Part shown: piece after piece, positions 20,517-42,284 of the stretch
Position numbering within the stretch: the first letter of the stretch is position 1
Layout: each line of letters opens with the position of its first letter
Assembly: GCA_016187225.1 (NCBI GenBank)
Contig: JACPKC010000010.1
Location: forward strand, 67,541 to 131,540
From: Candidatus Berkelbacteria bacterium
GTDB lineage: Bacteria; Patescibacteriota; UBA1384; JACPKC01
Direction: 5' to 3'
DNA length: 64,000 nt
Position numbers and translations under genes: made by a program
The notes under the pieces: generated by a model
Told to the model about the DNA's origin: nothing
Database searches by the model: none
The model's input: the letters and a program-made list of their open reading frames with translations, nothing else

Positions 20517-22826
20517 TTAGAACCCAGCCTTATAGAGTTTATTTTCCGCCAATACCCAGAAGACTTTACCATCTTCGTCAACTGCGATTTGATCGAGAGC
20601 TTGGACCCCATCCAAAACATACTGATTTTGGAATCGTCCGTCAGAGCCGAGAACCACAATTCGTTCGCCATCGACAACGTAAATTTTGCCACCCTCGCGA
20701 GTCGTTAGAATTTGTTTGGGCGAGGTGAAGTTCGAGGCTGGCGCTGGAATGTCATGGATACGAAATTCAACTCTTTTTCCGCGATTGAGTTTAATTACCT
20801 CTCCAAGTTTTGAAAGCACATAGACGTTGCCATCAATTGCTAAGTCGATGCCATCGCTAATTTGCGTGCCGTCGGTGATAAATGCTTCGGGCGCCTGAAG
20901 GGCGCCATCCACAGATGGAAATTTCCAGATCTGGTTTTCAGAGGGCGCTAGAAGATAGAGATTATTGAAGAATGCGGCGAGACTTTGGCCCAGCTTTGTA
21001 TTTGCGCCTTGAGGATTTAGGGCATTAAGTGGGCCGCTAGCGTCGGTTAATTCATAAAGCGCGGGTTTGTCGGTGCTGACAAGCGCGCCAATTTTTTCAT
21101 CGTAGACGCCAATAGCAGTGATTTTTTCATTGGCGGGCGAGACGACAGATACTTGCTCGCCTCCATTCTCGGGCAAGGTTATGAGTTTGCTATTCTCGAC
21201 TATCGTCAGTTTATTATCCCAACGCGTTAAAGATGATCCCTGCTCAAATTCTGCCAAACTTGCTAAGTTTTTAAGGCGCGTGGTTTTAGTTAACTCGTCC
21301 AGGGCGGTTTGCGCTTCGTCGCGAACCTGTGTAGCGATTTCAGTTACCGGGGAATTTTCAAGCGTTGCAACGCCGGTGATAACTTCAGCAAACAGTGTCT
21401 GGGCTTTTTCAGTCTGATTGAAAATTTTGGCAAGCTTTCCTTCCTCTAACTTATCTTCTAGGTTCTGCAGTTGAGCAGTTGCCTCAACCCGTTTTTGCTC
21501 CTCGCCGCGACGAGTCGCGAGCGCGCGCAAGTTTATTCCAAGCAAAACTATTAAGATCGCGGCGAGGACAATAAAACCCGCCGAGCGCGAGGCAAAATTG
21601 ACTTTTAATAAAGTTGGCAGAGGAAATTTGGCGGTCGGATGAGTTTGTGGGACTTGATCGTAGACGTGCACTGCGCCCACGGTTCCCAAGTTGTCTGAAG
21701 ATGGGGCCGTGTAATCATGAATCGCGAACACCGACTTGCCAATCAGGCTTTCTGTTTTTGTCGGCGGAGTGGGTAGATCGCTTGAGGGGTGAGTTTTTGA
21801 CAAGACGTCTGGTGGCGCCGCTGGGCGCCGATTTTTTAATTTTTCAATTTGATCGCGAAGAGCAGGCAGGGTCTTTTCACGAAATTCCTGATGGTGAGTT
21901 CGTGACCAGTTCTTAAATTGTGCCAGCGTTTGCTTGCTTCGCGGAAGCGCATGAATTCGAAAGGCGGTGTCTAATCTTCGATCCCAAACTTTCAGCCATC
22001 CACCTGCGGTTAAAGCAATTTCGTGCAAACGTTTCAGCCCTGCCAGACCAGTCAGACGCCAGTCGCTTACGCCGTTGCTGTCGAGATAAAACACTTCGGG
22101 GGATCGAGTTAAAGTTTGATTGGCTTGGGATGCGAGACTGGGAGATTCCAGAAGCAAAGCATTCACCCAACGCCCCTTTTTGGTTTTTAGAATGTTTGTC
22201 AAATGGTGAGCCGCTGTGCCTAGATCGGGTACTGAAAAGACATTTGCCTTGAGTTCCGGCACAGAGCTAACAGTTAAAAGGCCGATACTCCCGAAAAGAA
22301 AACGATCGCCGGATTCGAGTTTACCCGAAAGCACCGTCGAAAAAGTCTTGTTTGGTGTATTCACTGGGCTCGATGAGTCAAAAACATTCGAGGCCTTGCC
22401 TTCGCGAATCAACCAGCCGTGGATCGTGCCACAGGTTGTAATATGAATCTCATCTTGGATAACCAAAATTAACACGGCATTGAGGTGACCAAGCCAATCT
22501 GTTTGACCTGTCTGTGCCAAGTGTCCGAGAGTTTCATTGATTTTTTTAAGCGCCGTTTCAAAATTCACAAGTGGATCGCGATCAGCGCCGCGAAAATACT
22601 CTCTCGACGCAGTGTTGATGAGAGTTTGGCCAATTTGAGAGTTTGGGAACCATGGGCTCTCAATCTCGACTAAGGTAAAAATTCGACCAGCGGCGTTTGC
22701 CTCTGGATCGTGAGATTCCTTGACCTGGGTAGTTACATATCGATCCGAGAGTTTAGCGCTATTTGTAATGCGTACGTATCGAAACGCATCATTCGTTTTT
22801 ATATTCGCTTGTGACTCTGATTCCAT
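20517..22826 (-). CDS. Large membrane protein (769 aa): N-terminal cytoplasmic domain, Pro-rich linker, single TM helix, coiled coil and a C-terminal extracytoplasmic beta-propeller-like repeat region; hypothetical
   Basis: The TM helix is 'FIVLAAILIVLLGINL'. The C-terminal repeats are 'GNVYVLSKLGEVIKL', 'GGKIYVVDGERIVVLGSDGRF' and 'DGKVFWVLAENKLYKAGF', resembling YVTN/NHL/PQQ-type blades. The N-terminal domain is only loosely PP2C/SpoIIE-like and lacks a clear DGxGG motif. Confidence 0.6.
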   Translation of the reverse strand: MESESQANIKTNDAFRYVRITNSAKLSDRYVTTQVKESHDPEANAAGRIFTLVEIESPWFPNSQIGQTLINTASREYFRGADRDPLVNFETALKKINETLGHLAQTGQTDWLGHLNAVLILVIQDEIHITTCGTIHGWLIREGKASNVFDSSSPVNTPNKTFSTVLSGKLESGDRFLFGSIGLLTVSSVPELKANVFSVPDLGTAAHHLTNILKTKKGRWVNALLLESPSLASQANQTLTRSPEVFYLDSNGVSDWRLTGLAGLKRLHEIALTAGGWLKVWDRRLDTAFRIHALPRSKQTLAQFKNWSRTHHQEFREKTLPALRDQIEKLKNRRPAAPPDVLSKTHPSSDLPTPPTKTESLIGKSVFAIHDYTAPSSDNLGTVGAVHVYDQVPQTHPTAKFPLPTLLKVNFASRSAGFIVLAAILIVLLGINLRALATRRGEEQKRVEATAQLQNLEDKLEEGKLAKIFNQTEKAQTLFAEVITGVATLENSPVTEIATQVRDEAQTALDELTKTTRLKNLASLAEFEQGSSLTRWDNKLTIVENSKLITLPENGGEQVSVVSPANEKITAIGVYDEKIGALVSTDKPALYELTDASGPLNALNPQGANTKLGQSLAAFFNNLYLLAPSENQIWKFPSVDGALQAPEAFITDGTQISDGIDLAIDGNVYVLSKLGEVIKLNRGKRVEFRIHDIPAPASNFTSPKQILTTREGGKIYVVDGERIVVLGSDGRFQNQYVLDGVQALDQIAVDEDGKVFWVLAENKLYKAGF

Positions 22827-24427: not shown

Positions 24428-25084
24428 ATGTTGCCCCAAGCTTTTCAGATTTTACTTAAGCGCAGAGTTATGAGCCAGACCACGCTTTTGAGCGGTCAAA
24501 CTCCTGCTAATCAACTCATGGTCGCTCGCAACATCGCTTCTATACTTAAAATCGCTCCAGTTGACACGCTTCTTGTTTTATCGCCGCCAAAAATCGCTGA
24601 CCTGCGTTCAATTCTAGAACGTCTCCAATTTAAGCCCTACCAATCAGAATATGTGCTGGCGCTTTTGATCTCGGTCGATCAATGGTCATCTGAAACAGCC
24701 ACGGCCCTGTTGAAAATTCTTGAAGAGCCGCCACCCCAGGCGCGCCTCGTTTTGTTTGCGCAGGACGAAGAGAGCGTTTTACCTACAATTCGATCACGAG
24801 CAAGCAGATTCAGGCTTCCTGTAACTTTTACGTCTCAAGAGCAGTCTTTGTCGCCCCTTGAAACACTTTTAAGCAAACCATTATCTTATCAAATGATGCA
24901 GACTGCTAAATATGCCGAGGAGTATTCAATTCCAGAAATTTTGAATTCTTGGCTTGTGCAGACTTCAAGCCGATCCCTTCAAGTTTATTTACTTACTTCT
25001 CTAACTGAAGTTGGAACACATCCGGTCAATAAACGCCTCTTTCTTGATTCATTACTCGTCAATGTTCCAGGAAGAAGAGTATGA
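24428..25084 (+). CDS. holB: DNA polymerase III delta-prime-like protein (truncated, no Walker A)
   Basis: The delta-prime signature 'ALLKILEEPPPQARLVLF...LPTIRSRA' is present. It is only 218 aa and lacks a P-loop. Confidence 0.6.
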   Translation: MLPQAFQILLKRRVMSQTTLLSGQTPANQLMVARNIASILKIAPVDTLLVLSPPKIADLRSILERLQFKPYQSEYVLALLISVDQWSSETATALLKILEEPPPQARLVLFAQDEESVLPTIRSRASRFRLPVTFTSQEQSLSPLETLLSKPLSYQMMQTAKYAEEYSIPEILNSWLVQTSSRSLQVYLLTSLTEVGTHPVNKRLFLDSLLVNVPGRRV

Positions 25085-25671
25085 TTCTTGAGATTCTAAT
25101 CATCGCGGCGATCATTGGCATGTTTATTATTTTGGCGCGGCGTCTGCCCGATGCACTTAAAGGTGAACAGGGTTCATTGCCGCCTCAAAACACACCCGCT
25201 CGTCCAGATTTTTTTACTAGAGCTCGAATTTGGTGGAAGACTGCTAAGCGAGAACAGTTGCGCCCGGCAAAATCACCAGTGGCTGTCGCTCAATCCGTCA
25301 AAGCGCCGAGCGAAGTGCTGACCGAAGATGTGCTCTTAAGAGAAGGCGATACTTACATGCAGGAGGGTAAGCTCAAGGAGGCCGAGCGGGCATTTTTAAG
25401 GGCGGTCGCCAAAAATCCTAAAAACCCCAAACTTTATAATCGCCTGGGTGCGATTTATCTTAAACAACGTAACTATTCAGATGCGCTCCAGGCATTTGAA
25501 GCCGCTCGCGATTTGGATTCGAGCAAAGCCTCGCGCCACTATAACGTCGCTCTCGCCGCCTGGCAGATGACTAATCTTTCCAAGGCTCGCCACTCGATTG
25601 CTCAAGCGATTAGCCTCGATCCGGTTTCGGCTAAATACCAAGAGCTTAAGCAACAGATTGAAGCGAAGTAA
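25081..25671 (+). CDS. Membrane-anchored TPR-repeat protein
   Basis: It has an N-terminal TM helix and TPR-like repeats ('AERAFLRAVAKNPKNPKLYNRLGAIYLKQRNYSDALQAFEAA'). There is an ATGA overlap with the upstream gene. Confidence 0.65.
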   Translation: MILEILIIAAIIGMFIILARRLPDALKGEQGSLPPQNTPARPDFFTRARIWWKTAKREQLRPAKSPVAVAQSVKAPSEVLTEDVLLREGDTYMQEGKLKEAERAFLRAVAKNPKNPKLYNRLGAIYLKQRNYSDALQAFEAARDLDSSKASRHYNVALAAWQMTNLSKARHSIAQAISLDPVSAKYQELKQQIEAK

Positions 25672-26668
25672 TTTGTCCCTCGAGCAATTCAATGAGTTCG
25701 GATTCGTTTTCGTCAGCCTCAATCTTGAGAGATTCAAGATGAGCGAGAAATTCTTGACCCTGCCGCGCAACCTCGTCGCCAGTTGCGTAATTCAGTTTTG
25801 GATCTAAAAATTGCCGGTTACCAATTTTCATTGATATATATTCTCGATAAAAATACTCATTACTCTCTGCGTTCACTAAGAGTGTTTGGACCATTGAGTG
25901 TAGTTCTTCTTGGTGCTGTTTGAAATATTCTTCGATAAAAATAAACTCTTGCGCATGGCGCGCAAGTCGCGGCAAAGAATTTCGTAAAATATCCCAGATT
26001 AAGGCGTGGGATTTGCGTTTTTGAGGTGGAGCAAAGGTGCCATCTTCTTGAATCATAAGCGTTGGTTCAATGTAAATACCCGAAGTTTGATTCACCTCAT
26101 CTTCATTATTGAGCGCTTCTTCAAGCACCAATCGCCATTCCTGCCGAGCAGTTTCAAGAAAAGCGATCTGCTCCGTTGCTTTCCACAACCTGCCTTCTAC
26201 CGATGATTCTGGCTTTTTTATCACTTTCTTGACGCGCAACATATCCACATAGAGTTTTTCTTGGTTACGGATCTTTTCCAAATGCAGATTAAACTGTTTC
26301 TCGGCGATCTCTTGGTTGAACCAAGTTTTTGTGCCATGAGGAATGTCGCCCTGGAATGGCCCAACTTCTTCAATGTCATGCGTTGTCAGGAGTAGGGCAT
26401 AAAATTTTCTGTCGATTTTAAGCTCCGGAACGCCGGCGTGGCCTCGCAACTTATTCTCGCGCGTCAAACATCCAAGGCCGCGTCGCAAACTGCCCTTGTG
26501 ATGAGTGGCCACCGTTCCTTCATGAGGGTAGGGCGCCTCGCCATGAACATAAGGCGCGTAGCGTTTTTCTGTTTGCGCCGCCGGTGAATAAGCAGTTTCC
26601 TTAAGAAATTCCTCTTCTTCAGGCGTAAAGATAAATTGTTCAGGTGAAAATTTTCTCGATCCCTCCAT
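25646..26668 (-). CDS. Hypothetical protein, 340 aa, with a possible HD-type metal-dependent phosphohydrolase motif
   Basis: A loose H...HD pattern is present ('ATHHKGS' ... 'LLLTTHDIEEVG'). It is otherwise helical and acidic, with no confident family assignment. It occupies the position downstream of rpmG-tRNA-Trp where secE-nusG normally lie. Confidence 0.5.
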   Translation of the reverse strand: MEGSRKFSPEQFIFTPEEEEFLKETAYSPAAQTEKRYAPYVHGEAPYPHEGTVATHHKGSLRRGLGCLTRENKLRGHAGVPELKIDRKFYALLLTTHDIEEVGPFQGDIPHGTKTWFNQEIAEKQFNLHLEKIRNQEKLYVDMLRVKKVIKKPESSVEGRLWKATEQIAFLETARQEWRLVLEEALNNEDEVNQTSGIYIEPTLMIQEDGTFAPPQKRKSHALIWDILRNSLPRLARHAQEFIFIEEYFKQHQEELHSMVQTLLVNAESNEYFYREYISMKIGNRQFLDPKLNYATGDEVARQGQEFLAHLESLKIEADENESELIELLEGQITSLQSVA

Positions 26669-26705
26669 CCCACCTCCTTTAGTTACCTAAAAAATAACAA
26701 ATATT

Positions 26706-26779
26706 TGGCAGGAGCTGGAGGAATCGAACCACCGACCGCGGTTTTGGAGACCGCTGTTATACCACTTAACTAAGCTCCC
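26706..26779 (-). tRNA. tRNA-Trp (anticodon CCA), CCA encoded
   Basis: Acceptor GGGAGCT/AGCTCCT, anticodon stem GCGGT/ACCGC with loop CTCCAAA, and T-loop GGTTCGATTCC. Confidence 0.8.
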
Positions 26780-26789
26780 TTTCTAATTG

Positions 26790-26978
26790 TTAGGTTCGCG
26801 GTTTTGGATTTGGCAATTTTGTCTCGTTATGTTGAGTGTGTTTGCGGCACCAAGTGCAGTATTTTTCAAGCACAAGCTTATCAGTTGTGTTCACAACATT
26901 TTTTGACACCACATAGTTGCGTCGCTTACATTCGACACAAGTGAGATTAAATTTTTGTCGTTTGCCTTTTTTTGCCAT
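26790..26978 (-). CDS. rpmG: 50S ribosomal protein L33
   Basis: '[27 protein letters not shown]...[16 protein letters not shown]' matches L33 with its Cys4 zinc-ribbon. The start is taken at the internal ATG (MAKKGK) rather than the ORF-track upstream extension. Confidence 0.85.
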
Positions 26979-27010
26979 ATTCTTCCTTTCTTTGTCTTTT
27001 TCTACAAAAC

Positions 27011-27085
27011 TGGAGCCCACGGGCGGATTTGAACCGCCGACCTATTCCTTACCATGGAATTGCTCTGCCTCTGAGCTACGTGGGC
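27011..27085 (-). tRNA. tRNA-Thr (anticodon GGT), CCA encoded
   Basis: Acceptor GCCCACG/CGTGGGC, anticodon stem ATTCC/GGAAT with loop ATGGTAA, and T-loop GGTTCAAATCC. Confidence 0.8.
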
Positions 27086-27086
27086 T

Positions 27087-27173
27087 TGGTGCTGGGGGTA
27101 GGATTCGAACCTACGAAGGCGCTGGGCCGTCAGATTTACAGTCTGATGCGTTTGACCGCTTCGCTACCCCAGC
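27087..27173 (-). tRNA. tRNA-Tyr (anticodon GTA), class II long variable arm, CCA encoded
   Basis: Acceptor GCTGGGG/CCCCAGC, anticodon stem TCAGA/TCTGA with loop CTGTAAA, a long variable arm and T-loop GGTTCGAATCC. Confidence 0.78.
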
Positions 27174-27181
27174 TTGTTATC

Positions 27182-27256
27182 TGGAGCCACCTGTCGGATT
27201 TGAACCGACGACCTTCACTTTACAAAAGTGTTGCTCTACCGCTGAGCTAAGGTGGC
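27182..27256 (-). tRNA. tRNA-Thr (anticodon TGT), CCA encoded
   Basis: Acceptor GCCACCT/AGGTGGC, anticodon loop TTTGTAA and T-loop GGTTCAAATCC. The anticodon stem has one mismatch. Confidence 0.7.
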
Positions 27257-27328
27257 AGGCAATTCTCCAGAAAAATAATACTAGCAAGGTAGAGAGGAAT
27301 ACTCAATGATGGGGGAGCTTATTTTATA

Positions 27329-27389
27329 CACTCTACGAACGTTAAATGATTAGAGAGTGTCTAGATACTCATTTAACGTTCGTAGAGTG
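27329..27389. promoter_or_regulatory. Perfect 21-bp inverted repeat (CACTCTACGAACGTTAAATGA / TCATTTAACGTTCGTAGAGTG) with a 19-nt spacer; candidate operator or RNA hairpin
   Basis: It is seen directly in the sequence. It lies between the tRNA array and the downstream hypothetical gene. It abuts a TATAAT hexamer at about 27390-27395. Confidence 0.6.
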
Positions 27390-27454
27390 TATAATTGACA
27401 GAAGTGGAGTATTCTGATATATTGCTAATGTACGAAGTGTTCTATGGAGGGAAA

Positions 27455-27961
27455 ATGGAAAAGAAGGATAAACAAAAAGACTTTCAACGTCTTTTCGATG
27501 AAATCGAGTTGCAAATTTTGTATGCCGAAACTCCAATTCAACTTTCTTCAGCGCTTGCAAAGATTACAAAAAACAATCGCTTAATCCAGCGAAATTTACA
27601 TCGTCTATATGATATCGCAAGCCCGGCACGGATTCTAGGGTTAGTCTTACGCGGTTACGAAATTCCTGATGCTCTAACGCGTCTAGAATCAAATCGTTCT
27701 TTGCTCGATCTAAATAGAACCCTAGAGACTCTGTCGAGAACAGCGCTTAAGGAGCAAATTTGGCTCATGCTGGCGCAACAACGTGAAGTTCTGCTTGCTC
27801 AAATAGAACAAGATTTAGAGACACTTGTGCTTAGGTCGTCTGATCAGCGAGCGATTGCAAGTAGAAAACAAATTTTACTTGCAACCTACGAGCTAATCCA
27901 GGAAAATACAAAAATTGCAGTTGAAAAGGTTTTTGGGCGCGCTTTGTCGGTGGAGGGGTGA
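27455..27961 (+). CDS. Hypothetical protein (about 168 aa, helical)
   Basis: The ORF has a strong SD (GGAGGG) 3-4 nt before its ATG. The ORF-track TTG start at 27395 lacks an SD. There is no recognizable family. Confidence 0.5.
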   Translation: MEKKDKQKDFQRLFDEIELQILYAETPIQLSSALAKITKNNRLIQRNLHRLYDIASPARILGLVLRGYEIPDALTRLESNRSLLDLNRTLETLSRTALKEQIWLMLAQQREVLLAQIEQDLETLVLRSSDQRAIASRKQILLATYELIQENTKIAVEKVFGRALSVEG

Positions 27962-28893
27962 TGATAACCGTTATTGAGGAATTTGAAGAACTGATTGACC
28001 ATGGTCACGAGCATTTTGCGTGGATAGAACGCTTTATTGCGATCTATCTTTTTCATTTTGTGATCAATGTTCTAGCCTAAGGGGCTATCCCGAACAAGAC
28101 AGTTTTTCTTCGTTTCAGGTAACCGGCTGAAAACTATTATTCTTCGACTCTCCGTTTTACGGCATTTTTTGAATGTCTCAAACAAGAGCCAGAAGTATAA
28201 ACCCGTCAGTGCGGGCAGATTTTGTTATCGCGAGTGAACCGTAGCGATCCTGGTAGATTGTCGCGGTTGCAACCTCGTAATTTTCAGGATTGCTTCGTCG
28301 TCCTTGGCTCCTCGCAATGACGACAATGAGAAAGCCCTGATAAATAGGGAAACAGGGGATTGAAGGTGGCGTGGATAACTGTGGATAACTTTCACAATGG
28401 GGGAGTGAAAAGGGGATGCCGCGCCTAAACTGTTTAGGCGATTATATGGTGCATGAAAAAGTTTATAAGAGGGGAGTAAAGATTATTTAATGCTAGGGAA
28501 GTGCAAATTTTTTTTATTGTGTGTAATTTTTTATCCTACAAACTCTCCCCCGCTTTCAGCTTGTCGTCGTAAGTCATCCAATTTTTGATAGGCGCATGTT
28601 GCGTACGCTAAAAAACTCATTGATATTTTAGAAATAAAATACTACTCCCCTGCTCCAAATTTTTGCATCATTTGAGATCGTTAGGAAATTTATTTTCTGC
28701 ACCTCGAAAAGAGCGCCAGCGACGCTTTTGCAGAGAAGTCCTCGACTATATAAATAATTCTCGATGCGCTTCGCTTACTCGAACAAGAATACTTTTTAAC
28801 CATCAAAAACTTTCGACACGCCCGGACAAGAACCCAAGGCCAGTCTTGAGCAAAACATTTCTTGCTAATGGGCGGGAGACTTAAGACAGAGAG
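27962..28893. other. About 930-bp gene-free AT-rich region between convergent genes; candidate ncRNA locus or replication-origin-like region
   Basis: No ORF of 60 aa or more on either strand across about 700 bp. Tandem DnaA-box-like motifs CGTGGATAA and TGTGGATAA at about 28370-28388. AT-rich tracts at about 28490-28540. A perfect 8-bp-stem hairpin at about 28422-28440. Confidence 0.4.
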
Positions 28894-30546
28894 TTACTCG
28901 TTCCCGTGGAAGGGTCGGCGGATAATAAAGTATGAGACAATACCCGAAAGGATCGATGCTATCAGAAGAACAATGATTAGATTCGCTCCAGAACTTGCGA
29001 GTTTGACGGGTGCGCCTTTGCCGTCGGTTTTGGTTTGGACGACAACCGGTTCTTTTGCTGTTACTGCTTGTGTGCCAAGTATCTTCTCGCCTTGACGAAC
29101 TGTAATCGTATAATTACCGGCCGTCGTGTAGGTATGTTTCAAAGTTGTTGGGCAAGTGACGTTGCTTTGCACAATGCCGTCTCCAAAATCAACAGTTAAG
29201 TTGGTAATCGTATCGCCGGTGCAAGTAAAGGCAACTTCAAACGGCACTGTGCCTGTGGTTGGGGTCACTGCAAAGGTTCCTGTTGGGGGAGTGACGACAG
29301 TTTGAATTTGGGTTTGTGAAATTGTAAAAGAGGCGCTCTTGCTTTGAGTTTTATTTTCGGCCAAATAACTAACAGTCACAATATAGTTGCCTGAAGCGGC
29401 CGTCAGGCCGTCGGATTTTTTCTGATCCCAGGTCCAGGTCTTCGACTGGCCAATACTTAAATCGATGAGCGCTTGAGTCGAGATCGGCTCAAAGATCGCC
29501 GTGGAACCTTGCAGAATCTTAAAGGGCGCCCCATTCGGCAATTGAACCTTTGCTTCGCCAGTGTTTTTAAGCGTAAATTCCACCAGTTCAGCCGGTTTGT
29601 AGATGCTTTTCGAGGTTGTCAAGCTAACCGAAATTACTTTAGGCTTCTCAATGGGTTTGGGTTCTTCTTTGGGCTGTGTAGTCGTGACGGTTTTTGTATC
29701 GACAGTCTTACCATTGACGATCAGAGTGACTGTAAAAGTTCCCACCGAAGTATAAGTATGGGTTTCAGCGGCATTTGCATCGTCTAGGGTTGTGCCATCG
29801 CCAAAGTTCCATTTAATCTTGGGCGAGGCGCTACCGCCTTGCGGCGGTGTATAGGTGGCTGTTACCTTTAAGGGAATATTTCCCGTTGTTGGCTCGACCA
29901 CCATTGTGCCCAAATCATTTGGATCATGCAGAGCACTAAACGCAAAATCATCAATTCCAAAACCGTCAGTAGTGCCAGGAGCATTTTTCTTTAAGCGAAT
30001 CTCGGCAATGCCACTATCCGCAGTGGTGGCAGCAAGAGTGACTGGTGAGTTTACGCACTGACCACCCCCAGGAGCATTAACGGTCTTTGTAGCGATGCTC
30101 TTACCGTCAATATCAAATGCTTCAATACTTACTTCGGCATTGCCAGCATTCCCAATAGAAAAATTCATAGAATCACTGACACGCCCCTGGGTAAACTTTA
30201 TCACTAGAGGAGCGTATGAGCTTGGTTTTGCGATTAGAATATTTGGCTCCGACGGCACTTTGTAGCTTGGGCAAGCCGCACTTGCCCCAGACGCCGCAAA
30301 AAGCGTTGCACCGCTACCGCCGCCGTCCGGACTCAAAATCTCTACACCTTTGTCGGCATAGGCATCGCCAGCAATATCGCCTGAAGATTTATCATCCCAG
30401 TTGAGAGTGGTTTTTTCTGTCGCAATGTCGGCTTGTGAGAGCTGAAAAGTTTGAATGCTCCAATAGCCTAAACTCGCACTAAAAATTAGCGCGCTCACAA
30501 CCAGCGCTTGCCGCACTCTCAAGTATAACGGTGGTATTTTAGCCAC
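28894..30546 (-). CDS. Cell-surface protein with PKD domains, an N-terminal signal/anchor and a C-terminal TM anchor
   Basis: PKD signatures 'KIKWNFGDGTT...THTYTSVGTFTVTL' and 'VDFGDGIVQ...HTYTTAGNYTITV'. The C-terminal tail 'KLASSGANLIIVLLIASILSGIVSYFIIRRP' has the form L-x-S-S-G-A-N + TM + RR. Confidence 0.75.
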   Translation of the reverse strand: MAKIPPLYLRVRQALVVSALIFSASLGYWSIQTFQLSQADIATEKTTLNWDDKSSGDIAGDAYADKGVEILSPDGGGSGATLFAASGASAACPSYKVPSEPNILIAKPSSYAPLVIKFTQGRVSDSMNFSIGNAGNAEVSIEAFDIDGKSIATKTVNAPGGGQCVNSPVTLAATTADSGIAEIRLKKNAPGTTDGFGIDDFAFSALHDPNDLGTMVVEPTTGNIPLKVTATYTPPQGGSASPKIKWNFGDGTTLDDANAAETHTYTSVGTFTVTLIVNGKTVDTKTVTTTQPKEEPKPIEKPKVISVSLTTSKSIYKPAELVEFTLKNTGEAKVQLPNGAPFKILQGSTAIFEPISTQALIDLSIGQSKTWTWDQKKSDGLTAASGNYIVTVSYLAENKTQSKSASFTISQTQIQTVVTPPTGTFAVTPTTGTVPFEVAFTCTGDTITNLTVDFGDGIVQSNVTCPTTLKHTYTTAGNYTITVRQGEKILGTQAVTAKEPVVVQTKTDGKGAPVKLASSGANLIIVLLIASILSGIVSYFIIRRPFHGNE

Positions 30547-30703
30547 AATCCCTCCTTTTGCTAGTATTTTAATACTAAATGGTAAATACTAAATGGTAAA
30601 TAGCGAACGGACCGAGTATTTTGATTGCTTTGCAAGTAAGCGGTGGAAAACATCGCTCACATATTTTTTCGGTCTGCTACAATATATATAATTGTTAGGC
30701 TAA

Positions 30704-31105
30704 ATGAATCTATGGAGGGGTATGTCGTTTTTAGATAAACGTTCGTCAAGGCGAACCATTATTTTTTTGATCTTACTCATCCTGATTGCTGGAGCGATTC
30801 GTTATTTTACAATTAAGCCTCAAACTATTATCACGCCAACCACCGCAACCATTAATGAGCAACTGGCAGAAAAAACTGGCATAATCCGTTCATTTGATGG
30901 CGCGACCGTAAAAGTTACCGATCAGGAAGGCAATGAGCAAGCTTTTACTTTAACAGATGACGTTAGAATTCGCGTCACGAATGACGAGGGTATTTTTGTG
31001 GAAGGTAAAAAAGATGATTTTAAGGCCGGTCGCGCCATTTCCTATTATCTTTTAATCGGCATCTCGAGTCCGATGAGTAGTTCAGTTGATATCGTGAAGG
31101 AGTAG
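30704..31105 (+). CDS. Small membrane-anchored hypothetical protein (alternative start at 30722)
   Basis: It has an N-terminal TM helix 'IIFLILLILIAGAI' followed by a beta-rich domain. It lies immediately upstream of, and is presumably co-transcribed with, the large secreted protein. Confidence 0.5.
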   Translation: MNLWRGMSFLDKRSSRRTIIFLILLILIAGAIRYFTIKPQTIITPTTATINEQLAEKTGIIRSFDGATVKVTDQEGNEQAFTLTDDVRIRVTNDEGIFVEGKKDDFKAGRAISYYLLIGISSPMSSSVDIVKE

Positions 31106-31107
31106 CC

Positions 31108-33114
31108 ATGACGCATGCTCGATTTTTAGCCCTTTTTGCTTTTGTTTGGGGATTGTTATTCTTAGGGTCGGCGCAAGCCCAGGTTTATGACCACCCGGGT
31201 TTGGGTCTTAAGGTGCCAGAAACTTCATGTTATACCTACCGAACTGGTGTTAGATTTGCCATAACTAATAGTTCTTCTATACCAATAATTGAGTCGAATA
31301 ATGATTCACAGTACGACTCATTCTATGCTTCATTAACAACGCCTGGCACAGGCGCACCAGCGAATAATTCAGTTTGTAACTTTGCAGTGCCGGCTGATAC
31401 CGCCGAAGTGAAATTACTTGCCATTCAACGGCCAGGAAGTCAACAAGCAATGCAACAATGGGCAAATTGTCCTAATTTACCTCAGTGGATGCAAAACATA
31501 TTTTGCCCCGGTGGCGCTAATCCAATGACTACGCCAGCTTCTATTAATTTCACGGGCGAATATCACAACTACGAGACCGGCAATCCTATCAATCCAAACG
31601 ATTTCACTCTTTATAAGCAAACTCAATATGCGCTGAATCCGGTTGTGCTCACAAGTAATAGCAATGGTATTGTCGACTTTTCAAACATTACTCCGGTGGA
31701 TGATCAGGTCTTGCCACCTCCGAATCTACCCACAGGCCGACCGTGGCAGTATCGAAATCAAAGAATCGGTATGAACAATGGGAGCAATGGGAATATTCAA
31801 ATCGCAACGGCTGGGTCGGTTTTCTACGTTAACATTCGCAAAGGTGCGATTCAGAGTCTACCGGGAAACTTTAATTTAAATTCTCCGACAACCTCATGTT
31901 CAGGCAACTCGCCTCGAGTAACATTAAATTGGGGATCATCGCAAAGCGCAACTTCGTACGCAGTTTACCGTAATAATGTGGCGCTTAGTTTGAATGTCAC
32001 AAGCCCTTGGACCGACAACTCCGTTGCGTCTGGCTCGCATACCTATAAAATTCGTGCTCAAAATTCAGTTGGCTATACCGAGAGCAACTCTCAATTAGTC
32101 AATGTGCCAACCTGCCAGCCTCAACCAGTATTATCCAGTGTTGCGATTAATCCACCTTTTGCCACAGTAATTACAAATAATATTGTGCAGTTTAGCGCCA
32201 ATTGCCGCGATCAGAATGGCGCCAACTTTAATGGCGCATCCGTGCTTTGGGGCGCGCAAAGAGGATCAATCAATCAATCAGGCCTTTATACTGCTCCGGC
32301 GACTGCGGGTTCCGATACCGTGACTGCCCAGTGCGCGGCTGTGGGCCAGAATCCAGTTACTGGCGCCGCGCCTGTGACAGTTAAAGGGGGGCAAATAACT
32401 GGGGATATCTTTGCCGAGGGCGATGTCAGCAATCTTAATATCGATCCGGATTCAGTTGTCTCATCGAATGGAAGCGTCACTGTGACTGGCACGAATAACA
32501 CAATTCAGCAATACGACAGCAATGCTTCTCAACAAGCAGATACTGTTATTCAAAAACTCATCAATGAGAAGGCCAATGTCCTTGGCGCTGGTAGTTCGGC
32601 AAGTTGCACTAATAGCAATAGCGGTAATTACACGCTCAATAGTGTCTTCAATCTAAATCCCAAACAAGCGGGCAATCCCAGTGACTCTGAAGAAAATGCC
32701 GCTAACCCAGAGGGCGGAGTTTGGTTTGTGCGTCACAATTTAATCATGCGCGGCGCTACCTTTAAGGGTAAAGGCACAATCATTGTCTGCGGAGATGTGA
32801 ATTTAATTTCACCTTCGAATGAGAAAACTATTGCTTACCAAGACGGTGGCACCGGCGATGATCTGGTTGGATTGATTAGCCTGAACGGCAATATCGATTT
32901 AAGAAATTATGATAATCTAGTCGGCGCTTATTACGCGCCAAATGGCACGATTGATGTTGGGCAGGGTAGTTCCTCGCTTGGGCTTTATATTGGGGAAAAT
33001 ATTACCCTTCAAGCCGCTGATGTGACTGTTGATTACGATGGTCGCATTACTAACGGTCCACCCCCAGGCTTCAGCAAATCCTTCGTACCCTCGCTTTCTG
33101 AGGTCGCGCCGTAA
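31108..33114 (+). CDS. Large secreted protein with an FN3-like domain, a Big_2 (bacterial Ig-like) domain and a C-terminal beta-helix-like region; candidate adhesin upstream of the pilus locus
   Basis: Signal peptide 'LALFAFVWGLLFLGSAQAQV'. FN3-like 'RVTLNWGSSQSATSYAVYRNN...HTYKIRAQNSVGY'. Big_2-like 'VAINPPFATVITNNIVQFSANCRDQNG...YTAPATAGSDTVTAQ'. Confidence 0.65.
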   Translation: MTHARFLALFAFVWGLLFLGSAQAQVYDHPGLGLKVPETSCYTYRTGVRFAITNSSSIPIIESNNDSQYDSFYASLTTPGTGAPANNSVCNFAVPADTAEVKLLAIQRPGSQQAMQQWANCPNLPQWMQNIFCPGGANPMTTPASINFTGEYHNYETGNPINPNDFTLYKQTQYALNPVVLTSNSNGIVDFSNITPVDDQVLPPPNLPTGRPWQYRNQRIGMNNGSNGNIQIATAGSVFYVNIRKGAIQSLPGNFNLNSPTTSCSGNSPRVTLNWGSSQSATSYAVYRNNVALSLNVTSPWTDNSVASGSHTYKIRAQNSVGYTESNSQLVNVPTCQPQPVLSSVAINPPFATVITNNIVQFSANCRDQNGANFNGASVLWGAQRGSINQSGLYTAPATAGSDTVTAQCAAVGQNPVTGAAPVTVKGGQITGDIFAEGDVSNLNIDPDSVVSSNGSVTVTGTNNTIQQYDSNASQQADTVIQKLINEKANVLGAGSSASCTNSNSGNYTLNSVFNLNPKQAGNPSDSEENAANPEGGVWFVRHNLIMRGATFKGKGTIIVCGDVNLISPSNEKTIAYQDGGTGDDLVGLISLNGNIDLRNYDNLVGAYYAPNGTIDVGQGSSSLGLYIGENITLQAADVTVDYDGRITNGPPPGFSKSFVPSLSEVAP

Positions 33115-33146
33115 TCCAATGTGCTATACTTTAAGCATACTTTCTA

Positions 33147-33809
33147 TTGAGGAGGGGCGTGTTAAGTTTCCAAAATGATGGCATTCAACCGGCTAAGACG
33201 CCGGCAAATGGAGCGGCAGGCCCAGCGCCTGTTCAACCAGCCAAATCTGCTCTTGACCCAAGTGTGGTAGCAATCAACCCGGAATCAAACGATTCGCTAA
33301 TCGCAATTTTTGCGGGTTTAAGTGTTGCTCTTAGTCTCCTCGGCGGTGTTGCGGCCTCATTTTTGCGGGCCCAAGCGAAAGGAGAAGCTGAAGCCTCAAG
33401 TCAAAAAGTGACGAGCCTTCAGCAGGAATTCGCCTCGGGCGATCTTAAAACTATGCTCGATAAGGCTGGTTTAGTTGAAAAACAGCTCGAGGTCACAAAA
33501 GAATTCTCTGCCGCCCTGCCTTGGCCAAAGCTCTTAAAAGCTCTAGCCGACAAAGTCCCTGGATCGGTTAAATTTACGGCCAATTCTTTTGAAACTGACA
33601 AGTCATTAAGAATTGACGGCTCGGCAAATAATTACGCCGAGGTAGCGCGACTCATGACCGCCATCGAGTCGACGGATGAGTTTTCGGAGATTGCGCTGAC
33701 GAGCGCAACTCTTTCTGAATCTGTCGACGGTAATTCGATTACTTTTTCAATCACGGCCAAATATGCGGCGCCAGTCGCTGGAGGGGATGATGGCGGAAAT
33801 ACAAACTGA
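33147..33809 (+). CDS. pilN: Type IV pilus assembly protein PilN-like
   Basis: It has a single TM helix, a coiled coil and the C-terminal PilN-like block 'LRIDGSANNYAEVARLMTAIESTDEFSEIAL'. It is the first gene of the pilus assembly operon. Confidence 0.65.
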   Translation: MRRGVLSFQNDGIQPAKTPANGAAGPAPVQPAKSALDPSVVAINPESNDSLIAIFAGLSVALSLLGGVAASFLRAQAKGEAEASSQKVTSLQQEFASGDLKTMLDKAGLVEKQLEVTKEFSAALPWPKLLKALADKVPGSVKFTANSFETDKSLRIDGSANNYAEVARLMTAIESTDEFSEIALTSATLSESVDGNSITFSITAKYAAPVAGGDDGGNTN

Positions 33810-34389
33810 ATCAACTAAACATAACACTTTGTTGTGGCTAATTTTAGGCGTGATTGGTTCAGCCGCGGCATTCTATTTATATACCTTGCCTCAAATTCGC
33901 GAGCTCAAGCTTTTGCGCACGCAGTCGGCGACGCTTGAGGCTGATCTTTCAAGCTTAAACGAAAAGAAAACCACTGTTGTTAAATTAAACGACGATCTTA
34001 AAAGGAGCACTGCGCTGACTGACAAACTTGCTCTGGCTGTGCCAGAGGATGAGGCTATCGATGAGCTCATTACTTCACTTGAAAAGATTGTTGAAAAAGC
34101 GGGCATTACTTTGTTGTCGGTTCAGCCGGCAAGCAATGTTGAAACAGGCAAGACAACCGCTATGCTTTCAACCCGAGGCTCATATTCCGGCACAACACTA
34201 TTTCTTGAATTTTTAGAAAAGAACCTTCGTCCGATTGGCGTCAATGATCTTGCACTCACAGCGACGTCGGATATTCAAGGCGCGTCGCTGATTAGCGCCT
34301 CATTCGAGATTACTCCTGCCCAGATTGCCAAGGCCGCACCGGCGGCAGAGACGTCCGCTCAAGACACAGAGACAAAAGGAGCCCAATGA
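33787..34389 (+). CDS. pilO: Type IV pilus assembly protein PilO-like
   Basis: It has a TM helix 'LLWLILGVIGSAAAFYLY', a coiled coil and a C-terminal PilO-like fold. The start is taken at an ATG after the GGAGGGG SD; the ORF-track start at 33763 overlaps pilN. Confidence 0.65.
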   Translation: MMAEIQTESTKHNTLLWLILGVIGSAAAFYLYTLPQIRELKLLRTQSATLEADLSSLNEKKTTVVKLNDDLKRSTALTDKLALAVPEDEAIDELITSLEKIVEKAGITLLSVQPASNVETGKTTAMLSTRGSYSGTTLFLEFLEKNLRPIGVNDLALTATSDIQGASLISASFEITPAQIAKAAPAAETSAQDTETKGAQ

Positions 34390-34637
34390 ATCGGCCCATA
34401 GTAATTGGCATCGGTTTAGGAGTGAATCTCATTCTTGCGGGTGTGACACTTTGGCTGATTATGCGCGCCGTGCCCATGACGTCGGATATTGAAAGCGCCC
34501 GGACAAAAGTTGAACCTGCGCCAAAATTTACGATCAAAGATATCGAGGCGCTTAAATTGGATGAAAAAACCCTGAATGGTGACTTGCCGATCTCGATTGA
34601 TGGAGTTGGGCGTGTCGATCCATACGCGGGGATTTAG
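34386..34637 (+). CDS. Small single-TM protein (83 aa) between pilO and pilB; possible minor pilus-assembly component
   Basis: There is an ATGA overlap with pilO. The TM helix is 'IVIGIGLGVNLILAGVTLWLI'. There is no family match. Confidence 0.45.
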   Translation: MNRPIVIGIGLGVNLILAGVTLWLIMRAVPMTSDIESARTKVEPAPKFTIKDIEALKLDEKTLNGDLPISIDGVGRVDPYAGI

Positions 34638-34642
34638 CAATT

Positions 34643-37153
34643 ATGGTGAACCCTCAAGCCCAAAATAATTTGGAGATTCTCAAAAAAACGGCCGCTGAAC
34701 TCGGCCTTGAGCTTGTCGCACTCACCCAGGACACTCCTGAACAATCCGCCCTGGCTCTGGTGCCCGAAGCATTGGCGCGTCAATATCAGTTACTGCCTTT
34801 AACTCTTAAAGAGAAATCACTCACTCTCGTCTTAACTGATCCAGCGCTCTTGACAAAACCAGCGCCCAAATTTCTGCAGGAACTCAAGCAAAACGGGTAT
34901 CATCTGCGTTTGCAACTCACATCCAGCGAGGATTTTCAAACTGCTTTGGGAGCTTATCGACCACAAGTCAATGGCCAGAGGCCACTATCCAGAGTGAATA
35001 ACGCTCAAAGTCAGAACATGCAAGCGAAAACAACTGTGCAGGCAGGTCCTCAACCAGTAACTAGTATACCCCCAGTCGCTTCACCCGCACTTTCGGTGCC
35101 AGCCTCGGTGCATTCGGCGCAAGTCGAGTTAGTTATATTGAAAAGCAGAGAAGTGCCTTTGAACGTTTTAAACAAATTCCCCCAGGACGTGGCGAAAAAG
35201 TATCAGATGGTTGTGTTTGAACTTTCAGCCGACGGTCAGGAGGCATCCGTTGCCGCCCTTAAACCTAACGACCGTCGAATTCGAGAAATTCTCAAGTTTA
35301 TTGAGGCGCGAAACAAGGTTCGAATTCATTTATTCTCGGCGAGTAAAGAGGATATTGAAGGAGTATTGAAGCAATATGACACAGAGCACAGAGAAGACAA
35401 AAAACCAGCCCAAGCTCCAACGCCAATTTCTTCGATCTCTACTCCGCCTGCGCAGAAGTCAGCCATGGTTTCGGCGCCACTAAAGCCGAGTTTTGCGCCG
35501 ACAATTCTCACTCCTTCAGTGAAACCTAATTCTGTGTCGCGCATTCCACCCAAACCCGTTTCAGCGCCGCTCCCAGTTGTCCCCAAAAGACCTATCTTGT
35601 CGCCTTTGCCGACGCCGCTGGCGGCGCGGCCAGTTACGCCCATTGGGCCCAAAATCGGCGGCCTTACACCAGCTCAACCAATTGCGCCCGAGACGCCAAA
35701 TAGTTTGGGCACGACCGATCTTAAATCATACCAAGAAGCAATCATTCGTAATTCTGCCACTCTTCGAGATCCAAGTACGCCGGTTCCAACGGTCGAAGTT
35801 GGTGATTTACAACTCCCAACCAATCAACTTGGCGTGGGCGAGTTGCCGGAAGGACAAGCGCCGATTATGATAACCAATATCGGCGCAGAAGATAAAAATC
35901 TCGACATAGTTCTCGGCACGACCGTTGAAACTTCTGAACAACTTGAGCAAATTCTTAAATCTGGCATGGTGCCAAAAATTGTCGCCGCGATCGTGTTTTA
36001 CGCCACTGCCGTGGCCGCATCCGATATTCACATGGAGGCTGGTGAGAAAGAGGTTCGGATTCGCTTTCGTGTTGATGGCACTTTACAGGAAATTATCAAA
36101 TTGCCGGTTCAACTTTTGGCGCCGATTGTGTCGCGCATCAAAATTTTAGCCAAACTCAAAATCGATGAATCGCGCATCCCGCAAGATGGCCGTTTCGGGG
36201 TGATTGTGCAAAAGCGGGAAATTGATCTGCGAGTTTCAACCCTGCCAACAGTTTTCGGCGAAAAAGTGGTTATGCGGATTCTCGATAAAGAAAAAAGTTT
36301 GAAAAAACTCACTGAATTGGGTATTCAGGGTACTAATCTCGCTCGAATCCAGTCAGCAATCAAAGACCCCTTTGGTATCATTTTAGTGACTGGTCCGACC
36401 GGTTCAGGCAAGACCACAACACTTTACGCGATGTTAACTGAACTCAATACCGCAAGTGTCAACATTGTTACTCTCGAAGACCCGGTCGAGTATCAGCTTG
36501 ATGGCATCAATCAGACCCAGGTCAAGCCAAAAATCGGCTTTGGTTTTGCCGATGGTTTACGTTCAATTCTGCGGCAAGACCCGAACATTATTATGGTTGG
36601 CGAGATTCGCGATGGAGAGACTGCCGGCCTGGCAACTCAAGCCGCGTTGACCGGTCACCTGGTGCTTTCAACTTTGCATACCAACGACTCATCTGGAGCG
36701 CTTCCCCGGATGATCGATATGCACGTTGAACCATTCCTCCTAGCTTCTTCGGTGAATATCGTGATTGCCCAGCGTTTGATTCGTCGCTTGTGCTCAAAGT
36801 GTCGCCAGCCAGCCTCAATTCCGGCCGAAACTCTCACTCGCATTCAGCAGGAGCTCGCCTCGGCATTCGCTCCTGAACTTAAATCAGCGGCGAGTAAGCA
36901 ACTTTCTTTCTTCGGCCCAAATCAAAAGGGCTGCAATGTCTGTCATAATGGTTATAAGGGTCGGGTCGGGATTTACGAAGTTCTAATTACCAGTCCGGCT
37001 ATCGCCGATCTCGTTCTTGCTAAATCCGCCTCGTCCAAAATTGCGGCTAAAGCTCACGAAGAGGGGATGATCACACTTAGAGAAGACGGCATCCTTAAAG
37101 CCATGCAAGGTGAAACATCGCTTGACGAAGTCATTCAAGCCACCAGCGAATAG
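34643..37153 (+). CDS. pilB: Type IV pilus assembly ATPase PilB (GspE family) with a duplicated N-terminal T2SSE_N-like domain and a Pro-rich linker
   Basis: Walker A 'VTGPTGSGKTTTLYAML', Asp box 'IMVGEIRD', His box 'GHLVLSTLHTND', and the tetracysteine motif 'CSKCRQ...CNVC'. Two N-terminal domains are separated by an approximately 150-aa Pro/Ala/Ser-rich segment. Confidence 0.9.
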   Translation: MVNPQAQNNLEILKKTAAELGLELVALTQDTPEQSALALVPEALARQYQLLPLTLKEKSLTLVLTDPALLTKPAPKFLQELKQNGYHLRLQLTSSEDFQTALGAYRPQVNGQRPLSRVNNAQSQNMQAKTTVQAGPQPVTSIPPVASPALSVPASVHSAQVELVILKSREVPLNVLNKFPQDVAKKYQMVVFELSADGQEASVAALKPNDRRIREILKFIEARNKVRIHLFSASKEDIEGVLKQYDTEHREDKKPAQAPTPISSISTPPAQKSAMVSAPLKPSFAPTILTPSVKPNSVSRIPPKPVSAPLPVVPKRPILSPLPTPLAARPVTPIGPKIGGLTPAQPIAPETPNSLGTTDLKSYQEAIIRNSATLRDPSTPVPTVEVGDLQLPTNQLGVGELPEGQAPIMITNIGAEDKNLDIVLGTTVETSEQLEQILKSGMVPKIVAAIVFYATAVAASDIHMEAGEKEVRIRFRVDGTLQEIIKLPVQLLAPIVSRIKILAKLKIDESRIPQDGRFGVIVQKREIDLRVSTLPTVFGEKVVMRILDKEKSLKKLTELGIQGTNLARIQSAIKDPFGIILVTGPTGSGKTTTLYAMLTELNTASVNIVTLEDPVEYQLDGINQTQVKPKIGFGFADGLRSILRQDPNIIMVGEIRDGETAGLATQAALTGHLVLSTLHTNDSSGALPRMIDMHVEPFLLASSVNIVIAQRLIRRLCSKCRQPASIPAETLTRIQQELASAFAPELKSAASKQLSFFGPNQKGCNVCHNGYKGRVGIYEVLITSPAIADLVLAKSASSKIAAKAHEEGMITLREDGILKAMQGETSLDEVIQATSE

Positions 37154-37161
37154 GAGTTCCG

Positions 37162-38268
37162 ATGGTTGAGACGCAATCCACGCAAGCCATGTTGGGCGCC
37201 AACGATCGCTCACTTTCACCACATTTAAGCGAGATGCTTAAATTCGCAATTGAACATAGCGCTTCTGACTTACACATTCAAATCGGCGTGCCGCCAGTTA
37301 TCCGCATCGACGGCAAACTTCGCTCGGTGCCAGATCAGCCCCTTTATACTCAAGAATCGGCGGCCGCCGACGTGCTTTCGAGTCTAGGGACCGTGCAACG
37401 CGAACGCTTTGCGACCGAACGCGAACTCGACTTTTCTTTTACCTTTGAAACGATGCGCTTACGTTGCAATGTTTACTATGAAAAAGGCAACATCGTCGGC
37501 GCTTACCGATTAATTCCAACTCAAATTCGAACTGTTGAACAACTTGGCTTGCCGCCGGTTTTGGTTCAGTTAACCGAACACAAACAAGGACTCGTGATTA
37601 TTACTGGCCCAACTGGCCATGGCAAATCCACCACGCTGGCGGCTTTAATCGACCATATTAATCACAATCGCTCCGAGCACATTATTACAATTGAGGATCC
37701 AATCGAGTACATTTTCGCAAATCAGAAAAGCGTCATCTCCCAACGTGAAGTGGGCTTCGATACCAAAACTTTCGCCAATGCCTTGCGCGCTTCCATGCGC
37801 CAAGACCCGAATGTAATTTTAGTCGGTGAGATGCGCGATTTGGAAACGATGGCTTCAGCGTTAACGCTCGCTGAAACTGGTCATTTAGTTTTCACAACTT
37901 TGCACACCAACTCCTCGGCCGAAACCGCTGATCGCATTATCGATGTCTTTCCGCCGCATCAACAACAGCAGATTCGCTCTCAACTTGCCTCGGTTTTATT
38001 GGGCGTCATTTCTCAACGTCTCCTGCCTAAAATCAATGGCGGGCGAGTTGCGGCGGCAGAAATTATGCTGGGCACAACCGCCGTTCGAAATACCATTCGC
38101 GAGGGCAAGACTCATCAGCTCGACAATATTATTCTCACCGGTTCAGCCGAGGGTATGATTAATCTCGATGCTGTGCTTGCCGGTCTCGTTAATAAGGGGG
38201 AAGTTACAATTGACGATGCGATCAACTGGGCGCGCGATTCTAAACAACTCAAGATTAATATCTTTTAG
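37162..38268 (+). CDS. pilT: Twitching motility (pilus retraction) ATPase PilT
   Basis: 'ITGPTGHGKSTTLAALIDHIN', 'ILVGEMRD', 'GHLVFTTLHTNS' and the AIRNLIRE-like block 'AVRNTIREGK' are present. Confidence 0.9.
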   Translation: MVETQSTQAMLGANDRSLSPHLSEMLKFAIEHSASDLHIQIGVPPVIRIDGKLRSVPDQPLYTQESAAADVLSSLGTVQRERFATERELDFSFTFETMRLRCNVYYEKGNIVGAYRLIPTQIRTVEQLGLPPVLVQLTEHKQGLVIITGPTGHGKSTTLAALIDHINHNRSEHIITIEDPIEYIFANQKSVISQREVGFDTKTFANALRASMRQDPNVILVGEMRDLETMASALTLAETGHLVFTTLHTNSSAETADRIIDVFPPHQQQQIRSQLASVLLGVISQRLLPKINGGRVAAAEIMLGTTAVRNTIREGKTHQLDNIILTGSAEGMINLDAVLAGLVNKGEVTIDDAINWARDSKQLKINIF

Positions 38269-38270
38269 TT

Positions 38271-40465: not shown

Positions 40466-40478
40466 TTTAAGAATTTTC

Positions 40479-42283: not shown

Positions 42284-42284
42284 A

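Follow-up and report, generated by a model that had tools for sequence, protein, structure and literature searches.

The gene order around a minus-strand tRNA-rpmG cassette of Candidatus Berkelbacteria bacterium (assembly GCA_016187225.1) is probably an inherited layout of a Berkelbacteria-like clade of the candidate phyla radiation (CPR), and the 340-amino-acid (aa) gene that stands beside this cassette probably encodes a divergent HD phosphohydrolase. The DNA analysed here, referred to as the window, is a stretch of 64,000 nucleotides from contig JACPKC010000010.1. In it, the cassette (tRNA-Thr, tRNA-Tyr, tRNA-Thr, rpmG and tRNA-Trp) lies 22.9 kb from the secE-nusG-rplK block, as measured from tRNA-Trp (minus strand) to secE (plus strand). 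A preliminary description had regarded this block as relocated and the 340-aa gene as an unknown gene in its place. The features which it listed (the tRNAs, rpmG, the 340-aa open reading frame (ORF) and the secE block) were all found, at the positions given there (Table 1).

The window protein is identical to HYW32_03230 of Candidatus Berkelbacteria bacterium. A word-indexed search of 5.8 billion proteins returned only this self-match, and an exhaustive HMMER search of 1.84 billion cluster representatives yielded 15 proteins at E <= 1e-3, ten of them full-length (304-360 aa) and 29-37% identical to the 340-aa protein. Searches of Pfam, NCBIfam, PADLOC and PDB sequences (phmmer) gave no match for it, and PADLOC revealed no similarity to known defence proteins.

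Structure prediction, proposed earlier as a check of this protein, was more informative. AlphaFold2, when supplied with a 15-sequence alignment, produced a confident all-helical model of HD type with a predicted local distance difference test score (pLDDT) of 84.9 and a predicted template modelling score of 0.84; a single-sequence run gave a pLDDT of 37. The high-probability Foldseek matches to this model (PDB and viral structures) belonged to families of the YfbR/OxsA/HDDC2/YGK1/PH0347 type, with weak E-values. The model shows the conserved all-alpha HD fold, together with a beta-hairpin-like insertion at ~197-218 and extra C-terminal helices reaching to ~320. The C-terminal helical extension amounts to ~120 residues and includes the invariant D226, E241 and Y248.

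A full-length alignment of 11 sequences contained 17 invariant positions (R36, G51, H56, G59, R63, H97, D98, E101, D108, G112, K114, K163, E166, E172 and the three just named). The loose H...HD pattern noticed earlier in the protein thus proved to be strictly kept, with H56 and H97-D98 invariant in all 11 full-length members, and could be sharpened to a predicted YfbR-like fold. The family consensus HDlGE-x(5-6)-D-x-PHG-x-K matches the motif H...HDxxE...GD(I/L)P...K, and the part HDxxE...GD(I/L)P...K is shared with Escherichia coli YfbR, a 5'-deoxynucleotidase/dCMP phosphohydrolase (PDB 2PAQ/2PAR/2PAU). Furthermore, the invariant H56 opens a long helix in the family, as H33 does in YfbR. When the family profile was aligned with E. 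coli YfbR (NC_000913) in hhalign, HDIEEVG-FQGDIPHGTK paired with HDASEV--LTGDLPTPVK, so that H97, D98, E101, D108 and K114 stand opposite YfbR H68, D69, E72, D77 and K83, in a match which spans 26 columns and, with a probability of 2% and an E-value of 0.021, is itself a point against the assignment. The PDB titles of the YfbR substrate complexes 2PAR/2PAU name E72 as the mutated position. Global and greedy hhalign runs against the YfbR ligands carried no confidence beyond the HD motif. R36, whose next residue is F or Y throughout the family, paired with YfbR R18-W19 only in the zero-confidence greedy alignment; in YfbR this N-terminal Arg-Trp pair reportedly clamps the nucleotide.

The two proteins also differ considerably: they share ~13% identity, the family member is 340 aa long compared to 199 aa, and YfbR scores 5e-77, 1e-16 and 2.5e-10 on PF12917, PF13023 and PF01966, profiles which leave the 340-aa protein unmatched. 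The counterpart of YfbR D137 would be either E166 or D226. The former lies in WKxxVExxGFLE, where K-x-x-E resembles K134-x-x-D137 in YfbR VKQAD137ALCAYLK, and the latter in ALIxDIL. Other near systems are OxsA, the oxetanocin-A HD phosphohydrolase of Bacillus megaterium (5TK6), the dATP triphosphohydrolase DatZ of phage S-2L (6ZPA), human HDDC2, yeast YGK1 and Pyrococcus PH0347. Unlike the 340-aa protein, these are single-domain proteins of ~170-210 aa recognised by standard HD profiles, and we know of no linkage of any of them to holB/TPR genes or to a tRNA-rpmG cassette.

Judging from the predicted model, the 340-aa protein is most likely a divergent member of the HD-domain metal-dependent phosphohydrolases, nearest in fold to the YfbR/OxsA/HDDC2/YGK1/PH0347 group. 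H56, H97-D98 and an acidic fourth ligand (E166 or D226) would coordinate a single divalent metal ion, with E101 acting as the catalytic acid/base. By analogy of fold, motif and nearest neighbours, its activity would most likely be removal of phosphate from a nucleotide, either as a (d)NMP 5'-nucleotidase or as a stepwise (d)NTP phosphohydrolase. Both OxsA and YfbR act on nucleotide phosphates as mononuclear HD monophosphatases (PMC12186264). A NUDIX hydrolase gene lies directly downstream of the family gene, in the same direction, in two of the fetched comparison loci (which we number L001-L101), namely L004 and L005; as genomic context, this neighbour would fit a role in nucleotide salvage or pool sanitation. 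CPR bacteria rely on nucleotide salvage.

We consider it rather unlikely, though worth weighing, that the HD fold serves a different chemistry, whether as a hydrolase of small alarmones ((p)ppGpp/(p)ppApp), as a phosphodiesterase of cyclic nucleotides or of 2',3'-cyclic phosphates at tRNA or RNA ends, as an enzyme of the HD oxygenase/cyanamide-hydratase type, or as a non-catalytic binder. The fourth ligand may be Glu (E166) instead of Asp, the conserved C-terminal extra with its three invariant residues could belong to another function, and the linkage of the gene to the tRNA cassette and holB is persistent. On the other hand, the HDxxE...GD(I/L)P...K motif is specific to the YfbR-type group and the NUDIX neighbour at two loci suits nucleotide metabolism. 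Less probable again is a Berkelbacteria-specific HD branch with its own substrate, for example a nucleotidase of salvage or sanitation that acts in concert with the neighbouring NUDIX enzyme in organisms incapable of de novo nucleotide synthesis; its expression in this lineage may have been rewired by recurrent cassette flips, through which the gene comes under the tRNA/ribosomal-protein promoter.

The 340-aa gene is preceded by a strong ribosome-binding site (AGGAGGTG) and starts 37 bp past tRNA-Trp. It converges with the TPR gene, and the 3' ends of the two overlap by 26 bp. All eight further loci that were fetched place the family gene beside a TPR/DUF1232/holB block. In seven of these holB was identified, and the contig of the eighth (L005) breaks off within the gene adjoining DUF1232; holB-TPR neighbours are shared by L003, L004, L017/18, L019, L020 and L021. 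Both the GC content of the gene (0.446) and that of its third codon positions (GC3, 0.425) are close to the window means (0.484 +/- 0.038 and 0.468 +/- 0.069, respectively), and its codon usage is within the range of the window.

These observations make it very improbable that this lineage alone gained the 340-aa gene, through a recent horizontal transfer that placed it after tRNA-Trp; a lineage-specific acquisition was one of the two origins considered in the preliminary description. tRNA genes are classic integration sites, and the position of the gene immediately downstream of one, the lack of an annotated family, the self-only result of the word-indexed search and the lack of a family gene in L007, L008 and L006 (whose L33 is the most similar among the relatives) could all be taken to favour such an event. 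However, homologues occupy the same holB-TPR slot in at least eight other lineages (L003, L004, L005, L017/18, L019, L020 and L021 among the loci) with flanking housekeeping genes ~50% diverged, and the majority of those loci have the family gene away from tRNA-Trp. Composition is unremarkable, PADLOC gave no match, and no integrase, repeats or attachment-site duplication were found around the gene. Recent horizontal transfer was rejected on composition and conserved synteny. As far as these comparisons reach, the family is a clade-restricted one, old inside the clade, fast-evolving and dispensable.

In the canonical cluster, as seen in other bacteria (L011, and in similar form L012-L014), the order is tRNA-Thr/Tyr/Thr-tuf-rpmG-tRNA-Trp-secE-nusG-rplK-rplA-rplJ-rplL. 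The tRNA-Thr/Tyr/Thr-rpmG-tRNA-Trp and secE-nusG-rplK units are each whole in the window, the latter being contiguous at 49646-50927, and the majority of relatives retain the relative order and strand of both. The window differs in that its cassette is without tuf (EF-Tu lies between the tRNAs and rpmG in L011) and is inverted, in that ileS-ftsW, rplU and ~18 kb of DNA separate tRNA-Trp from secE, and in that rplK is not followed by rplA-rplJ-rplL. In neither the window nor any relative examined does secE directly follow rpmG/tRNA-Trp. A different break of the same cluster is seen in WWE3 (L009, 3468-7511), where secE-nusG-rplK-[194-aa NYN gene]-rplA-rplJ-rplL is found 2.5 kb from rpmG, on the other strand. 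The WWE3 locus further shows an L1 with a ~100-aa Lys/Glu-rich N-terminal extension, and dprA-topA 2 kb downstream of tRNA-Trp.

Relatives around secE were collected by a NusG-anchored scan of Joint Genome Institute metagenome contigs (80 loci, NusG identity 68-81%), and relatives around rpmG by an L33-anchored scan of GTDB genomes together with context look-ups for family members. Where contigs reach far enough, the standard order around NusG is IleRS>FtsW>(L21>)SecE>NusG>L11>...DprA>TopA>RecR>CysS. Of the 58 loci long enough to show it, 57 have FtsW upstream of NusG, and DprA lies downstream of L11 in 34 of the 80. L1 follows L11 in two loci only, the CPR2-like L100 and L101. Among the remainder, 12 loci have 0.8-3.6 kb of other sequence after L11, 27 contigs end less than 700 bp past L11 and five stop before it. 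In four more distant relatives (L085, L086, L096 and L098) the entire string reads <M50 L28> <zf holB> TPR> Thr(tgt)>Tyr>Thr(ggt)>rpmG>Trp> IleRS>FtsW>SecE>NusG>L11>...DprA>TopA>, with everything from the cassette to L11 on one strand; in L086, IleRS begins ~30 bp past the end of tRNA-Trp. Compared to these four, the window shows three differences: an ~18-kb insert before ileS, rplU before secE and a flipped cassette. The inserted block, which is not present between tRNA-Trp and ileS in these four relatives, consists of a 168/188-aa unknown gene, a PKD-domain protein, a type IV pilus cluster and an RNase H-like gene.

In relatives with which the window is collinear, tRNA-Trp leads into ileS-ftsW-secE-nusG-rplK; we conclude from this that the secE block has not been relocated, and that the gap consists of inserted genes. 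What stands of the suggestion that the canonical linkage is broken is the loss of the rpmG-tRNA-Trp-secE adjacency and the lack of rplA next to rplK; the secE block itself has not moved. The comparison of synteny in related genomes, which had been recommended at the outset, shows an order that is conserved in relatives as a clade layout, and it thus says nothing unusual about this genome. A shared order in relatives, together with membership of the protein in a well-known family, had been named beforehand as evidence that would speak against the preliminary reading; both essentially apply, with the caveat that the 340-aa protein represents a highly divergent, unannotated branch of a known superfamily, as opposed to a housekeeping family that has a name.

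The interval between rplK and dprA is a variable slot of 0.45-4.5 kb in the 34 relatives with DprA. L1 never lies inside it, and neither L1, L10 nor L12 follows rplK in any of these relatives. The slot is empty in the window, where dprA starts 16 bp past rplK and is followed by topA, recR and cysS, as well as in L022 and L069. Its contents elsewhere include Sua5/YrdC-type, Mfd/TRCF-type helicase, NYN-domain and metallophosphoesterase genes or ~1,300-aa unknown proteins; in L086 the slot holds ~780 bp without any ORF of at least 80 aa. As to whether rplA, rplJ and rplL occur elsewhere, none was detected in the 64-kb window by tblastn (three queries for L1, two for L10 and two for L7/L12), nor by a Pfam scan of window ORFs at 30-64 kb.

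We suggest that the ancestral string ran from tRNA-Thr/Tyr/Thr-rpmG-tRNA-Trp into secE-nusG-rplK, and that insertions pulled the two halves apart with order and direction retained. Insertion of ileS-ftsW between tRNA-Trp and secE would have come earliest, and rplU and the ~18-kb block (188-aa gene, PKD protein, type IV pilus cluster and RNase H-like gene) would have been added in the sub-lineage of the window. rplA-rplJ-rplL would have become detached from rplK, with dprA-topA-recR-cysS taking that place. The 550-bp cassette would then have been flipped in situ in the window and in L006, leaving tRNA-Trp upstream of the 340-aa gene on the same strand. A recent translocation carrying secE-nusG-rplK 23 kb away from rpmG, or a mis-assembled contig, could produce the missing canonical adjacency and the dprA that follows rplK. 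Such an event is most improbable, given that the ileS-ftsW-rplU-secE-nusG-rplK-dprA order recurs in dozens of independent metagenome contigs, and the order PKD-188aa-cassette-(family gene)-TPR-holB in L006, L008 and L019. Further to that, the window junctions around 26.7 kb recur at 100% identity in L001 and L002, which are independent Logan assemblies, and this argues against a chimeric contig at this point.

The flanks of the cassette are fixed. Penicillin-binding protein, tyrosyl- and arginyl-tRNA synthetases, a ~770-aa protein, tRNA-Pro, M50, L28, zf_Tbcl, holB and TPR lie on one side, and the 188-aa gene, the PKD protein and pilus genes on the other. The cassette itself occurs in both directions. 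In configuration A, found in L003, L005, L007, L008, L018 and L019, Thr>Tyr>Thr>rpmG>Trp points toward the 188-aa/PKD side; the cassettes of L085, L086, L096 and L098 have the same direction and point at ileS. Configuration B, the reverse, is that of the window and L006. When six cassettes were aligned as DNA, homology extended exactly from the 5' end of tRNA-Thr(tgt) to the 3' end of tRNA-Trp, which places the breakpoints in the short flanking spacers (in the window, <=67 bp and <=37 bp). Where the cassette stands in configuration A, the family gene and tRNA-Thr(tgt) point away from each other, and the gene is on the far side from tRNA-Trp (L003, L005, L018 and L019). The 340-aa gene is therefore next to tRNA-Trp in the window because the cassette flipped, and it does not stand in place of secE-nusG; in the majority of relatives the family gene lies across the cassette from tRNA-Trp. 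A terminator-like hairpin is located directly 3' of tRNA-Trp in L019 and L006, and none was found between tRNA-Trp and the 340-aa gene in the window, which makes read-through from the tRNA/rpmG unit into the 340-aa gene, i.e. their co-transcription, plausible.

No more probable than the translocation is a programmed invertible element whose flipping would put the HD-like gene either under a promoter of its own or under read-through from the strong tRNA/rpmG promoter. Both orientations between fixed flanks, an orientation at odds with a weak neighbour-gene tree and the missing hairpin in the window might speak for it. Against it, there is no recombinase gene close by, the orientation is the same in all three assemblies of this organism, and no inverted repeats above the chance level surround the cassette (the best pair being 12 nt with 11/12 matching). 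Ordinary rare inversions suffice, because the compared lineages are ~50% diverged. A palindrome at 27324-27394 (29-nt arms, 13-nt loop, 97% complementary, unique in the window) was considered as a recombination site and rejected: L019 has a related palindrome (TATACA..GAACGT, 6957-6984) upstream of its homologous 172-aa gene regardless of cassette orientation, and the palindrome abuts the promoter of the gene. This promoter is near-consensus and sigma-70-like (TTGACA-17-TATATT with TG, within 27324-27423) and points into the 168/188-aa unknown gene (27395/27455-27961), of which the palindrome looks like an operator.

Several results weigh against an inherited layout with an HD phosphohydrolase beside the cassette. 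The window protein matched no Pfam family at E <= 0.1, the HD families PF01966, PF13023 and PF12917 included. The profile check with PF01966 that had been suggested earlier for this protein therefore gave no significant match, and among the 11 members a single one matched PF01966, at a non-significant E of 0.08. An hmmsearch of PDB with the family profile found no HD protein, and NCBIfam none. Two candidates, E166 and D226, compete for the role of fourth metal ligand, and the substrate class is based on the nearest structural neighbours and on the NUDIX neighbour in two of eight contexts. As for the locus, the family gene is missing from L006, L007 and L008, which is the reason for regarding it as dispensable. 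The rplA of this genome was not located, a profile search having been dominated by L1 proteins of CPR2 and Firmicutes; it is expected elsewhere in the genome because published work describes L1 as kept in Berkelbacteria, though altered by an insertion at its N-terminus and by internal deletions (bioRxiv 10.1101/2022.01.07.475337). Finally, six flanking proteins shared by the loci (2,085 columns) gave a star-like neighbour-joining tree, which groups the window with L003, which has configuration A, at 79% bootstrap and not with L006, so that one or several inversions, in either direction, all fit.

If the reading as an inherited layout is right, the apparent rearrangement of a highly conserved gene string is the normal layout of a whole CPR clade, reached via insertions and a small inversion. 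The L11-dprA junction with its variable slot and the detachment of rplA-rplJ-rplL are small additions to the known oddities of CPR ribosomal loci. The 340-aa family is a case of structure-based annotation where sequence profiles recognise nothing, and can be used as a seed for a new profile family. A clade-specific nucleotide phosphohydrolase, if true, would be of modest biological interest given the dependence of CPR bacteria on salvage.

Table 1. Features of the cassette, the 340-aa gene and the secE-nusG-rplK region in the window
Feature	Position	Strand	Basis or remark
holB-like gene (DNA polymerase III delta') and TPR gene	24428-25671	plus	Pfam; constant neighbours of the 340-aa family gene
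340-aa gene (NCBI hypothetical protein HYW32_03230)	25646-26668	minus	ORF; predicted YfbR-like HD fold and C-terminal helical extension
tRNA-Thr(tgt)/Tyr/Thr(ggt)/rpmG/tRNA-Trp cassette, compact, 550 bp	26706-27256	minus	Flipped compared to the majority of relatives
tRNA-Trp	26706-26779	minus	ARAGORN; Rfam tRNA
rpmG (ribosomal protein L33)	26790-26978	minus	Pfam PF00471 Ribosomal_L33, 1.4e-17
tRNA-Thr(ggt)	27011-27085	minus	ARAGORN; Rfam tRNA
tRNA-Tyr	27087-27173	minus	ARAGORN; Rfam tRNA
tRNA-Thr(tgt)	27182-27256	minus	ARAGORN; Rfam tRNA
Block between cassette and ileS	27395-45304	.	Pfam; synteny with L008, L019 and L006
ileS and ftsW/rodA	45301-49265	plus	Pfam; between tRNA-Trp and secE in every relative examined
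rplU	49350-49634	plus	Pfam/NCBIfam
secE	49646-49834	plus	TIGR00964, 3e-16
nusG	49844-50482	plus	Pfam/NCBIfam
rplK	~50502-50927	plus	Pfam/NCBIfam
dprA, topA, recR, cysS	50943-56225	plus	Pfam; directly after rplK, no rplA

The rpmG product of the window is 72-85% identical to its nearest relatives in the L33 comparison. The RNase H/RVT_3-type gene (44783-45304, plus strand) ends 4 bp within the annotated GTG start of ileS, and because of this overlap the two genes may be translationally coupled or may simply overlap. The type IV pilus cluster (30704-43492) looks complete: it comprises genes for PilN, PilO, a prepilin peptidase and a PilB-type ATPase (836 aa, with MshEN domains), besides five or more that are N-methyl pilin-like; the surface protein in front of it, with PKD domains, is 550 aa long. 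On the other flank, a small rpmB (ribosomal protein L28; 23616-23876, plus strand), whose true start is probably an internal Met, sits between zf_Tbcl and the M50 peptidase, a position kept in all relatives. Two large conserved proteins, of 769 aa (20517-22826, minus strand) and 1029 aa (56345-59434, plus strand), matched no Pfam, NCBIfam or PADLOC family; the former is syntenic in all relatives beside tRNA-Pro, at 36-44% identity. Two ORFs at 59541-61237 (304 and 258 aa), which gave no Pfam match, have a GC content of 0.57-0.61 and a GC3 of 0.67-0.74, compared to window means of 0.484 and 0.468, and may be recently acquired foreign DNA.

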